Shown: positions 3,340 to 44,711 of the stretch, piece by piece
How positions within the stretch are numbered: the stretch's first letter is position 1
Layout of the letters: each line of letters starts with the position of its first letter
From: a virus
Taxonomy: Duplodnaviria > Caudoviricetes
Length of the DNA: 64,000 nucleotides
Virus record (IMG/VR): IMGVR_UViG_3300049144_000095
Location: 128,001 to 192,000 of that record
Reading direction: 5' to 3' (one strand)
Made by a program: the position numbers and the translations under genes
The notes under the pieces: model-generated
Told to the model about the DNA's origin: nothing
The model's database searches: none
What the model saw: only the letters and a program-made list of their open reading frames with translations

Positions 3340-3356
3340 TACGATGGCCTAGGTCA
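3340..3356 (+). promoter_or_regulatory. -10 hexamer TACGAT fused to palindromic site TGGCCTAGGTCA
   Basis: Copy 1 of 7 intergenic TGRCCTAGGYCR sites. Confidence 0.7.
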
Positions 3357-3372
3357 CTCGGGAGGGGTGGGT

Positions 3373-3834
3373 ATGCAGCCTCATGAATTCGCTAGTGCGC
3401 TCAGGGAGTTGACGATACCGGGCGCCTCGGTGCGACCGGCCGACGGGAAGTCCGGCTCGGGCCTTGAGTACGGCATTCTCGTCACCGGGCAGCACGGCGG
3501 CCGGATGGCCTGGCAGGTGGCGCTCCAGCGGGACGGCGTACAGCCGGGGAGCGGGTCTCCGGTCTTTCCGGCCGCCGTCCCGGCCGAGCCGGACAAGCTG
3601 GTGACTGCGGACGTCGAGGCTTCCATCGCGGCGTGGATAGGAGGCTCAGAGCTGGCCGCTCACGTCACTGACCTGGTGCGGTATAGCGCTACCGGCTCTG
3701 TCGGTGGCAGGCGGTACGGTCTGAAGCTCACGCTGGACGAAGGCGGCCGGGTGTTCATCCAGCCGCTGTGGACATTGGAGCCGGGCGAGGATCCGAACTC
3801 GGACAACAAGGGCCAGATCCGCGACGTGGTCTGA
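3373..3834 (+). CDS. Hypothetical protein
   Basis: ATG 3373 after GGAGGGG. Confidence 0.75.
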   Translation: MQPHEFASALRELTIPGASVRPADGKSGSGLEYGILVTGQHGGRMAWQVALQRDGVQPGSGSPVFPAAVPAEPDKLVTADVEASIAAWIGGSELAAHVTDLVRYSATGSVGGRRYGLKLTLDEGGRVFIQPLWTLEPGEDPNSDNKGQIRDVV

Positions 3835-3853
3835 ACGGAAAGGGGAAGGGTGA

Positions 3854-4234
3854 ATGGCTGGCATCAAGGTGCGCAAGGGTGCGGAAGAGTTGGAGAACGG
3901 AAGTATCCGGCAGGTGGCCTGGCTGAACCTCACGATCTCGATTCAGCCCGAGGCGCACGACCTGGTCGACGGCCTCGGGAGCAAGTACTACCGTCACCGG
4001 GCCACCGCCGACGATGAGCAGCCGGGCGACCGACCGGCGGAACTGCCGACCGAGTTGACTCAGCGGCAGATCGCCGACATCTACCGGGAAGAACTCCTGC
4101 ACTGGGGCACCGCCAATCTGGCGACCTGGGGCGACTACCCCAGCCTCAGCTTCGACGAGCAAGAGGCCGCCCGAGGATGGCTGACCGAGCTGGTCGTCGC
4201 CGCCTTCCCGGAGATGAAGGAGTACGTCCGGTGA
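3854..4234 (+). CDS. Hypothetical protein
   Basis: RBS CGGAAAGGGGAAG. Confidence 0.8.
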   Translation: MAGIKVRKGAEELENGSIRQVAWLNLTISIQPEAHDLVDGLGSKYYRHRATADDEQPGDRPAELPTELTQRQIADIYREELLHWGTANLATWGDYPSLSFDEQEAARGWLTELVVAAFPEMKEYVR

Positions 4235-4479
4235 GTTACAGACTGGATGTGACCCGGCCGGACGGCTCCGTGTTCACCTACGACGACCCCAACGGCCCCT
4301 TCGTCAGCCCTACTCACGCCGCACTGATGATCGGACGGGTGTACCGGGAGGAGGGATGCGGTAACCGCATCTCCTTCGCTGAACTGAAGCGGGTGATGAG
4401 CGAGGTGGCCAGCGCTTCCCCGGGAACGCCGATGAAGCATCACGCACTGAGCTACACCTTCACGGTCCAGCCGGTCTGA
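4231..4479 (+). CDS. Hypothetical protein
   Basis: GTGA overlap. Confidence 0.7.
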   Translation: MSYRLDVTRPDGSVFTYDDPNGPFVSPTHAALMIGRVYREEGCGNRISFAELKRVMSEVASASPGTPMKHHALSYTFTVQPV

Positions 4480-4501
4480 CCAGAGGAAAGAGAGAAGAAC
4501 G

Positions 4502-4882
4502 ATGCTCAACGAGGCAGCCAAGGCGTCGCTCGTGCGTCGCTACGCCAAGTCCGCACACAAGGAGTACATCGCACGACTGGACACCATGCGGGAGATCCTG
4601 GCCGACAGGCCGATGAACCTGGACGGGGATCACTTCACGAACTTCTACACCGCCCGAGCCCTGTATGCCCTCTACTCGGAAGCGCTCGCCCTGAACGCGG
4701 TCGGCGGCAGCGACTACAGCGACGACAAGGTGCTCGACCGCATCCGGGACGCCCGCACCTCTCAGCTCCGGTGGCTGCTCACCAACAAGCTGGTCAACGG
4801 CGGCATGTACGGCCTGACCCAGCAGATCCTGGAGAACGCGGCGCGCAAGTTCATCTCCGACATGACCGTCATCGAGGAGTGA
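4502..4882 (+). CDS. Hypothetical protein
   Basis: RBS GGAAAGAGAGAAG. Confidence 0.8.
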   Translation: MLNEAAKASLVRRYAKSAHKEYIARLDTMREILADRPMNLDGDHFTNFYTARALYALYSEALALNAVGGSDYSDDKVLDRIRDARTSQLRWLLTNKLVNGGMYGLTQQILENAARKFISDMTVIEE

Positions 4883-5040
4883 TCACGGTGCAAACGGGCT
4901 GGTACCGCCGGTACCGGCAGGAGTACGCGCGGCAGCGGGCGGAGGGTGCAACCCACGAGAACGCCCGCAAGGCGGCCATCCGCATGCTGCGCGCCGAGAA
5001 CACACGCCAGGACGCTCCGTCCGGCGAAACGGAAGGGTGA
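4879..5040 (+). CDS. Hypothetical small protein
   Basis: GTGA overlap. Confidence 0.6.
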   Translation: MITVQTGWYRRYRQEYARQRAEGATHENARKAAIRMLRAENTRQDAPSGETEG

Positions 5041-5050
5041 GGAGCCACAG

Positions 5051-42670: not shown

Positions 42671-42877
42671 TCAGGCCCCAACCGTGAGGCTGGGCAAGTG
42701 GATCTGGAAGTAGTTCTTGCGACTGACGCGGAACGTCAGGATCGGCGAAGGTGGACCCCAGACCGAGGTGATCTGGTCGTACGCCTCATCACCGGTCGTA
42801 GCCTCTTCCAGACAGGTCATCTCGGTACCGTCCTCCAGTCGGAAGGTCACCTCCCAGATGCTGTTCATCGCTGACAC
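42671..42877 (-). CDS. Hypothetical protein
   Basis: ORF track. Confidence 0.65.
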   Translation of the reverse strand: MSAMNSIWEVTFRLEDGTEMTCLEEATTGDEAYDQITSVWGPPSPILTFRVSRKNYFQIHLPSLTVGA

Positions 42878-43104
42878 CCGCTCCCCTGGGCCTGCATGAC
42901 GGCGAAGAGCGTTCGGACCGCCCAGTCCTCACCCCGTTCGGCGCACTCGTAGAGGCGCCTCTCGAAGGCCTTGAGGCCTGGTTCGCCCTCTCCGAACTCC
43001 TCGACGGTCTGCTGGAACAGGTCACAGAGACGACCGATCGCTTCCTCGTCCAGTCCGGGGTAGACGGCCTGGAAGTTCTTGGCCACCTCGTCCTTGTCGG
43101 CCAC
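42865..43104 (-). CDS. Hypothetical protein
   Basis: RBS GGGAGG. Confidence 0.7.
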   Translation of the reverse strand: MADKDEVAKNFQAVYPGLDEEAIGRLCDLFQQTVEEFGEGEPGLKAFERRLYECAERGEDWAVRTLFAVMQAQGSGCQR

Positions 43105-43106
43105 GA

Positions 43107-43619
43107 CTAACCTCCCACATGGGCAGTGCTCAGAGATTCCAGACGATCCATGATGTGCGGCGGGGCACCTTCACCCCGGGCATCCCGCAGCAGCTCGGTG
43201 ATGGACACCGGATCGCCGCGAAGGCTGTCCATTCGCTTCGCGTAGTGATGCACCCAGTATTGATCAGCCTGCCTTGCCTGCCAGGCTCGAAGGGCGCGCA
43301 TGGCGTTTGCCGCTCGCACTGCGTTGGGGCAGTTCGTGCCGGAGCAGGACTTACCATCCATCTGTTGATGGATCACCTGAATGGGATTTTCGACCCGAGG
43401 CGCCTTCTCCCCGGCCGGGGGCTCCTCCAGGGTGATCTCGGTGGTCTCGCGAACCGGCCAGCCCTGGCCCCAGTCGAGGGTCACCCAGCGGTGCGGGCTG
43501 CCGTCGTACTTGACGTGGTCGGACACGTTCACGAGCCATCCGGCAGCGCCTTCCGGCCCTTCGGAGATGGCGACGTAGCGGCCGATGAACTTGTCCAGGT
43601 CGTGAAGATCTGTGCTCAC
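43107..43619 (-). CDS. Hypothetical protein
   Basis: GTGA overlap; RBS GGGGAG. Confidence 0.75.
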   Translation of the reverse strand: MSTDLHDLDKFIGRYVAISEGPEGAAGWLVNVSDHVKYDGSPHRWVTLDWGQGWPVRETTEITLEEPPAGEKAPRVENPIQVIHQQMDGKSCSGTNCPNAVRAANAMRALRAWQARQADQYWVHHYAKRMDSLRGDPVSITELLRDARGEGAPPHIMDRLESLSTAHVGG

Positions 43620-43894
43620 TTGTCGCTCCCCCAGTCCATGATCGCCTTGTCGACCTTCTCGGCCCACGGTTCGCCGAACTCCTTCCGGGAGGACACGCTG
43701 TTGTGGAACGACGCCTGCGCACCCGGATCGTCCGGCGGAAAGTGACTCACCGCTCGCGCCATCGCAGCGAGGCAGGATTGTGCCTCCTCACGGCTGAGGC
43801 GGTACCCCTCCTCAAGGAGGGTGAGGATGCCGTCGACCCTTCTCAGCGCATCCTCGCTGCTGAAGTCCGAGCCCTCGGCAGGTCGCACGCTCAC
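43616..43894 (-). CDS. Hypothetical protein, paralog of 43891..44166
   Basis: Y.L.R.EA..CL.AMA...EPWA.KV motif. Confidence 0.75.
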   Translation of the reverse strand: MSVRPAEGSDFSSEDALRRVDGILTLLEEGYRLSREEAQSCLAAMARAVSHFPPDDPGAQASFHNSVSSRKEFGEPWAEKVDKAIMDWGSDK

Positions 43895-44166
43895 GCGTGG
43901 TCCCTCCAGCCGAGTACGTCGCGGCCGACCTTGAGGGCCCAGGGCTCGAAGCTGTCGCCGTACATCTCGACGGCCTTGCCAAAGTTGTCCACAAGGTCGG
44001 CGTCGCCAGGACGGCCCCTGTGCAGCGTTATGGCCATGGCCTCCAGGCAGCCGACCGCCTCGGAGCGGGTGAGTCCGTAGTTCGCCTCGATGGCCGCGAG
44101 GATCTTGTTCACCTCGGCCAGCATCGGTTCGGTGTGCCGACTCGGATGGTCGGCTGGCGTTGTCAC
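43891..44166 (-). CDS. Hypothetical protein, paralog of 43616..43894
   Basis: Same motif; RBS GAAAGGGG. Confidence 0.75.
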   Translation of the reverse strand: MTTPADHPSRHTEPMLAEVNKILAAIEANYGLTRSEAVGCLEAMAITLHRGRPGDADLVDNFGKAVEMYGDSFEPWALKVGRDVLGWRDHA

Positions 44167-44202
44167 AGGGTGCCCCTTTCTCTGGGTGACCTCGGCGTCC
44201 GC

Positions 44203-44640
44203 CTACAGCGACCCCAGCGTGAGCCCGACGTGCTCCTCGCCCTCGCCGACGGTCTTGATGTAGTGCCGCACACTCAGGGTGCCGTTGTTGATGGTCATCT
44301 CGGTCCCCGGGGAGACGGGGTGCAGGACGACGTTCGCCTGGGTGCCGCCGTAGACGACACGGTTCGCTGCGTAGGCCAGGTTCACGAGCGGACCGAACGC
44401 GGCCCGGTCGAGACGTCCTTCGACCTCGGGGGCCGAAGCGAGGACCACCAGTGACTTGCCCGAGGCGGCGAGGCCTGCCCGCAGCTCTTCGGGGTCGGTC
44501 ACGCCGGACGCGTCCCGGGTCTCGAACCCGGCACCTTCGGCCGTCATCTTCATCCGTGTGTACGCCGGGCCGACCATCAGGATCAGTTCACCACGGTCGG
44601 GCCTGCCCAGAATGAGCTGGCCATTGGCGATTCCGCTCAC
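44203..44640 (-). CDS. Hypothetical protein
   Basis: GTG 44640 after CGGAGAGGAAAAGAAAC. Confidence 0.75.
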   Translation of the reverse strand: MSGIANGQLILGRPDRGELILMVGPAYTRMKMTAEGAGFETRDASGVTDPEELRAGLAASGKSLVVLASAPEVEGRLDRAAFGPLVNLAYAANRVVYGGTQANVVLHPVSPGTEMTINNGTLSVRHYIKTVGEGEEHVGLTLGSL

Positions 44641-44694
44641 GTTTCTTTTCCTCTCCGAAGTCGCCTTGTTTCCAAGGACTTTGAGACTCCAGCT

Positions 44695-44711
44695 TACCAT
44701 GGCCTAGGTCA
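44695..44711. promoter_or_regulatory. TACCAT plus TGGCCTAGGTCA (plus-strand geometry); TAAGCT hexamer on minus strand
   Basis: Copy 7. Confidence 0.6.

Follow-up and report, generated by a model that had tools for sequence, protein, structure and literature searches.

What reads the 12-bp palindrome YGRCCTAGGYCR, which recurs seven times between the genes of a 64,000-nt stretch of viral DNA, and what happens when it is read? The stretch, called the window here, comprises bases 128001-192000 of the 251,159-bp IMG/VR virus record IMGVR_UViG_3300049144_000095 (G+C 65%). In an initial annotation made from the letters alone, the palindrome was proposed to be a replicon-wide operator for a dedicated repressor or activator, with a parS-like partition site as the alternative. 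The comparisons described below suggest that it is quite probably the operator of a phage-encoded dimeric GntR/HutC repressor, designated HutC-1, whose gene lies elsewhere in the same genome.

All seven window copies are found where the initial annotation had placed them (Table 1), and matches to the pattern TGRCCTAGGYCR begin at these same positions, that at 35055 in minus-strand reading. Counted by strand, the window has 11 such matches versus 0.07 expected from shuffles, none of which reached 11, so that the recurrence is indeed unlikely to have arisen by chance. Of the eight CCTAGG sites in the window, all but one have full flanks; the exception (29799; window 29796-29807, CGGCCTAGGGTG) is missing its right half-site and is therefore not counted as a member of the family. 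Exact sites separate clearly from the noise of matches with one or two mismatches. The whole genome has 36 CCTAGG sites, 30 of them with the core GRCCTAGGYC. When symmetrised, the half-site reads Y(-6) G(-5) R(-4) C C T, with no variation at G-5 or in CCT; G outnumbers A at position -4 (80% versus 20%), and T outnumbers C at -6 (65% versus 33%). The under-representation of CTAG to which the initial annotation appealed is eight-fold here (106 observed versus ~811 expected from base composition), and one third of all CTAGs fall in the palindrome motif. The intergenic position also stands: all seven window sites lie between genes, as do 28 of the 30 genome core sites by crude gene calls, and 13 of 13 checkable sites by the independent, curated annotation of the related Streptomyces phage Satis. 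One of the two sites apparently inside a gene is that at 3345, within an over-extended open reading frame (ORF) call (3316-3834) whose likelier start is the ATG at 3373.

The DNA that had been labeled a replicon is a Streptomyces jumbo phage genome related to cluster BM, and not a plasmid replicon. Its gene order is common to the cluster BM Streptomyces phages Satis, JustBecause, Frankenweenie, and others, with DNA identity of ~65-76% in alignable parts, and the ends of the record share a 156-bp overlap, implying a complete circular assembly. A near-identity DNA search of the window against phage and plasmid collections gave no match, and relatives were reached only via the HutC protein: a scan of viral contigs with the single protein found nothing, and an alignment-based scan of viral contigs found 7 loci. 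A further relative is a 259,646-bp IMG/VR genome (named G005 here). A fourth lineage of the group is the 185,382-bp Scaffold14 in the assembly of the Streptomyces cucumeris isolate NEAU-Y11, 72% identical to Satis over one third of its length. This scaffold looks complete (127-bp end overlap, 62% G+C) and has a HutC-1 orthologue and 23 operators; its presence as a scaffold of its own might be explained by a carrier state, by a plasmid-like prophage, or by contamination of the culture. The four lineages aligned here with MAFFT (the present genome, G005, Satis, and the S. cucumeris scaffold) are only ~70% identical.

The palindrome is conserved throughout this group. There are 15 sites each in Satis, Frankenweenie, and four IMG/VR relatives of ~170-190 kb, and 31 in G005; a counterpart at the equivalent position exists in G005 for each of the seven window sites, and in Satis for 4-5 of them. 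In the four-lineage alignments, the 12-mer and the adjacent -10 box form islands of identity in drifting spacers. Set against the 30 sites in the present genome, the ~9.3 Mb of host sequence in the S. cucumeris assembly has 13, while the 185-kb phage scaffold in that same assembly has its 23, a ~90-fold difference in density. The 13 host copies are without flanks and fall mostly within long, probably coding reading frames rich in G+C at third codon positions (GC3); none is near a HutC-1-like gene.

The position of the palindrome relative to promoter elements suggests what a bound protein might do. Register statistics cover the 30 genome sites with both orientations pooled, so that some sites may count twice. 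A TAnnnT hexamer ends at -8 to -6 (on or within 2 nt of -6) in 13 cases (~1 expected), and begins 1-10 nt downstream of the core in 14 (3.2 expected), with P = 2.5e-5 for the exact register. Up to 27 of the 30 sites (13 + 14, with possible double counts) thus have a -10-like hexamer in one register or the other. Examined as host-type (sigma-70/HrdB) promoters, the sites have a -10 hexamer that is both enriched and conserved across lineages. At operator 4 its register is constant in the four lineages while its letters vary (TACAAT, TACACT, TAGACT, TAGACT), the signature of a functional -10 box. A scan for the sigma-70 consensus picked up no canonical -35/-10 pair at the sites, and the operator-bearing promoters are predicted to rely on -10 or extended -10 boxes; at genome site 246131, the core occupies exactly the space separating a perfect TTGACA from a -10-like box.

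Two layouts are found in the window. In layout A, the final letter of the TAnnnT hexamer is also the first of the 12-mer; in layout B, a TGnTAnnnT lies just downstream. The initial annotation described the operator as overlapping the -10 element, and this holds for the five sites with layout A, but at 18819 and 44700 the operator is instead just upstream of an extended -10. The hexamers it quoted are all present (TACGAT twice, TATCGT, TACAAT, minus-strand TAGACT, and plus-strand TACCAT), but the last of these, at 44695-44700 and antisense to the gene behind copy 7, is not the relevant element there; that is the sense, minus-strand TGgTAAGCT, whose position is conserved in relatives. Both layouts would put a bound protein on the RNA polymerase footprint, as expected for the operator of a repressor, and the variable distance from palindrome to -10 box fits occlusion, not activation. 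Judged by its placement over -10/+1 or the spacer, the palindrome therefore looks like a repressor operator rather than an activator site or a sigma signal, and of the two functions first offered for the dedicated protein, repression is the most likely.

Canonical terminators precede 3345 and 18819; 11972 is preceded by a -28 kcal/mol hairpin without a T tract, and 44700 (minus strand) also lies behind a strong hairpin. The hairpins ahead of these four sites (-25 to -31 kcal/mol) suggest that these operators mark restarts of transcription. With the motif spread genome-wide and embedded in core promoters, the proposal of a regulon at the heads of transcription units, that of the TerD gene included, is supported.

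The candidate repressor, HutC-1, is a GntR/HutC protein encoded at genome 213-944 on the minus strand, ~127 kb outside the window. Its orthologue in Satis is gp101, and it shares 60-67% identity with this protein and with the counterparts found in every relative. It matches the GntR domain PF00392 (35.1 bits versus a cut-off of 27) and, C-terminally, the UTRA domain PF07702, which has a chorismate-lyase fold (61.4 bits versus a cut-off of 23.8). By sequence and fold, its closest solved relatives are DasR and NagR/YvoA; the top fold matches of its structure model are DasR, YvoA, PhnF, and YydK, with only moderate model confidence in the UTRA domain. The predicted local distance difference test score of the model is 65 overall (moderate) and 80-90 in the DNA-binding domain, which superimposes on that of NagR in complex with DNA (4u0y) with a template modeling score of 0.85 (target-normalised) and a root-mean-square deviation of 1.6 A.

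This resemblance extends to the residues that read DNA. In the NagR complex, Arg38 (in helix 2) and Arg48 (at the start of helix 3) read G-5 and G-4, in half-sites 6 nt apart, while positions -3 to -1 are contacted through the backbone only (PMC4333415). By alignment with DasR, these arginines correspond to R34 and R44 of HutC-1, which are invariant in orthologues from 11 phage genomes or contigs; even one base-reading arginine is kept in only about half of HutC proteins (PMC4918961). The phage operator, TGG-CCTAGG-CCA, has a geometry identical to that of the NagR half-sites. Helix 3 and the wing of HutC-1 (TSR.TIDKV..LLTAEG..EPS.GNRPP.VA) are nearly invariant among the same 11 orthologue sources, matching the invariance of the operator. 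HutC-1 also has the palindrome in its own promoter: in all 10 of the genomes or contigs checked, an operator lies 23-24 nt (22-23 in one) upstream of the start codon, behind TGaCACAAT, which has the appearance of a classical autoregulatory arrangement.

In the mechanism that these features suggest, each operator would lie inside a host-type core promoter (TAnnnT -10), covering roughly -6 to +5 in layout A and filling the -35/spacer region of an extended -10 promoter in layout B. A bound HutC-1 dimer would keep RNA polymerase off ~30 non-structural promoters, its own included (negative autoregulation), and a small molecule might release or modulate the repressor through the UTRA domain. Binding by HutC-1, repression through that binding, and the involvement of a ligand are all inferred here.

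Table 1. Operators in the window, with their promoter elements, the genes they head, and their conservation (window coordinates; minus-strand elements are given in their own direction).
Operator	Sequence	Position	Strand	Layout	-10 element	Upstream structure	Gene headed	Conservation
1	TGGCCTAGGTCA	3345..3356	+	A	TACGAT 3340-3345, ending on first T	terminator 3299-3332	ATG 3373-3834	CTGTAYGATGGCCTAGGTCA in four lineages
2	TGGCCTAGGCCA	11765..11776	+	A	TACGAT 11760-11765		40-aa ORF, GTG 11804-11926	core kept in G005 and S. cucumeris phage scaffold, flanks differ
3	TGACCTAGGCCA	11972..11983	+	A	TATCGT 11967-11972	hairpin 11932-11960	ATG 12001-12405	CGTATC..TGACCTAGGCCA in three lineages
4	TGGCCTAGGCCG	16171..16182	+	A	TACAAT 16166-16171		conserved 30-aa micro-ORF, ATG 16214-16306	-10 register in four lineages
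5	TGACCTAGGCCG	18819..18830	+	B	extended, TGgTAGACT 18836-18844, 5 nt downstream of 12-mer	terminator 18775-18804	ATG 18867-19355	TGnTAGRMT at equal distance in four lineages
6	TGGCCTAGGCCG (minus strand)	35055..35066	-	A	TAGACT 35071-35066		48-aa ORF 35013-34867, then TerD-domain gene 34867-34154	ATAGACTGGCCTAGGC in four lineages; one core mismatch in Satis
7	TGACCTAGGCCA (minus strand)	44700..44711	-	B	extended, TGgTAAGCT 44699-44691, directly downstream of 12-mer	hairpin 44754-44728	GTG 44640-44203	TGnTAnnnT equally placed in G005 (TGaTACTCT) and S. cucumeris scaffold (TGtTAGGGT)

Several observations weigh against HutC-1 as the repressor. The operator core, GCCTAGGC, departs at two symmetric positions from the HutC operator consensus GTMTAKAC, known in palindromic form as NyGTMTAKACNy (PMC4494728): 6 of 8 positions match, with the symmetry, the central TA, and the half-site spacing equal, but C/G stands in place of the T/A in the GT/AC pairs. 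The wing sequence of HutC-1 differs from the GRG of NagR, and the Arg-x-Arg motif of the effector pocket is incomplete (R-L-N), leaving ligand control uncertain. HutC-1 and the motif co-occur in one clade only, so a phylogenetic profile cannot separate HutC-1 from the helix-turn-helix (HTH) protein at 38501 or the 27600 protein, both discussed below. Finally, the annotation of cluster BM phages describes them as having no repressor and as probably lytic (PMC10652959).

A second GntR+UTRA (HutC-type) protein, HutC-2, is encoded at genome 250377-251111 on the plus strand, and the two genes are convergent neighbours across the record ends. HutC-2 is 27% identical to HutC-1 and lacks both DNA-reading arginines; no orthologue is present in Satis or G005. 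Its gene is the last of the unit headed by operator 246131, and it could act as a modulator or decoy. Farther afield, the GntR regulator of pZL12 (the Streptomyces plasmid-phage ZL12) is 38% identical to HutC-1, but was dropped as a guide to the phage operator because the palindrome upstream of it, GCGCTAGTACTAGCGC, is different. This palindrome is perfect and lies ~90 nt before the probable start codon of the pZL12 gene, whose annotated start looks ~75 codons too far upstream.

If not HutC-1, the binder might be some other phage DNA-binding protein: the HTH protein at 38501-39328 (an orthologue of Satis gp218), another annotated HTH protein, or the conserved 27600-28760 protein. Most of these were among the candidates named in the initial annotation, together with the 58194 protein. 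All four lineages have the 38501, 27600, and 28760 proteins, several further HTH proteins are annotated in Satis, and the 38501 protein has weak HTH matches, the sole evidence of DNA binding among the earlier candidates. Its C-terminal HTH is poorly conserved, however, and its S. cucumeris match ends at residue 221, before the HTH is reached, whereas the operator does not vary. No DNA-binding domain was matched in the 27600 or the 28760 protein, and the 58194 protein is absent from Satis, which carries the motif. The palindrome is in the promoter of none of these earlier candidates, and none would explain the dre-like geometry of its half-sites. A binder of this kind is thus considered unlikely.

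As a second possibility, a host factor (DasR or another Streptomyces GntR/HutC regulator) might bind the palindrome, coupling phage transcription to host physiology. The 12-mer does match the core of dre, the operator of DasR and NagR, TGGTCTAGACCA, at 10 of 12 positions, and NagR makes no base-specific contact at the two that differ (PMC4333415). But the strict core carries C/G, not T/A, at plus/minus 3, and dre-type GTCTAGAC hardly occurs, with 0, 0, and 1 copies in three phage genomes whose strict-core sites number 30, 31, and 15. Nor is there a regulon in the one host genome compared, where the 13 scattered copies have neither flanks nor a nearby regulator, while the phage has a regulator of its own with a site in that regulator's promoter. 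Control by a host protein is accordingly judged improbable.

A third possibility is a positive function, with the palindrome serving as an activator site or a promoter-specificity signal. This would account for its tight association with promoters, and many sites have weak or absent -35 boxes, so that help may be needed there. Its overlap with -10/+1 or the spacer, at offsets of -8 to -6 and +11 to +20, is nonetheless typical of repression; such positions are incompatible with class I/II activation geometry, and a palindrome at variable register is unfit as a sigma-recognition element, making a positive role highly improbable. A non-transcriptional role, as a parS-like partition or condensation site, a packaging or replication signal, or a restriction or methylation target (CCTAGG), can hardly be credited. 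In its favour are the scattered distribution and the symmetry of the motif, a match to a ParA-like (AAA_31) ATPase (genome 236084-236245, minus strand, outside the window, in a 321-aa frame), and a DNA methyltransferase encoded by Satis. But no ParB_N domain (PF02195) was matched in the genome at E <= 0.01, the sites are spread over the non-structural parts of the genome where parS sites would cluster near a par locus, the conserved word is 12 bp rather than 6, and neither methylation nor partition would need sites confined to intergenic DNA and kept in register with -10 boxes.

The genes that the repressor HutC-1 would control are best seen in Satis, where operators stand at the head of the leftward replication operon (glycosyltransferase through helicase, DnaQ-like, Cas4, primase, and DNA polymerase), and are also found in the tRNA/Ro region, at the HutC-1 divergon, and in a long right-arm array of small genes. 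The terminase-to-tail module of Satis is not headed by any operator, and the virion module has zero strict-core operators. The window genes predicted to be under this control are small and of no known family, with no Pfam or PHROG function downstream of the seven sites except for the TerD-domain gene, which stands behind a conserved 48-aa ORF. The Satis counterpart of the TerD-domain gene is 59% identical and annotated as hypothetical (gp228); a tblastn search found no match to the window gene in G005, though the upstream operator is conserved there. The 48-aa ORF and the 30-aa ORF behind operator 4 are micro-ORFs directly following their operators, with start regions conserved in three or four lineages and Satis counterparts annotated as gp227 and gp260.

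Two other window genes were noted in passing. One (51730-53364, minus strand) encodes a 544-aa protein with a helicase-associated (HA) domain, a Pfam family known mainly from Streptomyces proteins. The other (49695-51470, minus strand) encodes a 591-aa protein whose N-terminus resembles Phd/YefM antitoxins, below threshold (26 bits versus a cut-off of 29.8).

Among known systems, the closest in architecture are DasR of Streptomyces and NagR/YvoA of Bacillus subtilis with their dre sites (PMC4333415, PMC4918961). HutC-1 has in common with these a winged HTH plus UTRA domain and both base-reading arginines; in both systems the site is a 12-bp palindrome built around CTAG, with its GG half-sites separated by 6 nt, and is placed in promoters, and the repressor regulates its own gene, as is predicted here. 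The strict-core sites of the phage always have C/G rather than T/A at plus/minus 3, being otherwise equal to dre. The present regulator is also encoded by the phage, with 15-31 operators on one phage genome of 185-260 kb, and would govern early and middle phage genes instead of amino-sugar genes. The Arg-x-Arg motif that is incomplete in HutC-1 is a phosphate clamp, so the effector, if any, is probably a different one.

Two further systems resemble this one in their distribution. The Kor repressors (KorSA of pSAM2, SCO3932; PMC8584621) are likewise HutC-type proteins on Streptomyces mobile elements, and bind their own promoters as well as those of key element functions, but they have a handful of sites on small integrative/conjugative elements rather than ~30 promoters of a jumbo phage. 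In cluster A mycobacteriophages (L5 gp71, Bxb1), one repressor acts on up to ~30 short, dispersed intergenic stoperators (PMC6550527), as is proposed for the phage sites described here. Stoperators, however, are asymmetric 13-bp sequences oriented with transcription and mostly outside promoters, where they block elongation, and they are bound by an unrelated HTH repressor that belongs to temperate phages, whereas the present sites are palindromic and promoter-embedded, in phages annotated as lytic. Stoperators of the cluster A type were therefore ruled out, given the palindromic symmetry and the -10-like hexamers. In the Streptomyces phage phiC31, too, early promoters have many conserved inverted repeats to which one repressor binds. 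This phage is small and temperate, and both the repressor family and the repeat sequence differ from those of the present system.

Neither of two cluster BM genome announcements mentions the motif, and Frankenweenie is described without a repressor; word searches of the literature for the motif found nothing relevant. The predicted control network is new in print, and is mechanistically an ordinary repressor-operator circuit. A bolder idea, rather doubtful at present, is that it is a metabolite-gated master switch: the UTRA domain of HutC-1 would sense a host small molecule, and the repressor would hold nearly all non-structural promoters shut, allowing a dormant, non-integrated carrier or plasmid-like state in mycelium or spores. 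The occurrence of a complete circular 185-kb relative as its own scaffold in the S. cucumeris isolate is compatible with such a switch, as is HutC-2, which without the DNA-reading arginines might serve as a modulator.

For the jumbo Streptomyces phages of the cluster BM type, the palindrome provides a first concrete handle on the organisation of transcription, with ~15-31 host-type promoters under one predicted phage repressor and the virion module outside the network. HutC-1 and its operator form a compact pair, apparently insulated from the DasR/dre system of the host, that could serve in Streptomyces engineering. A direct prediction is that Satis gp101 binds the 12-mer, and that its expression in the host blocks or delays infection. 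If the UTRA domain does sense a host metabolite, then the development of these phages would be linked to the physiology of their host.

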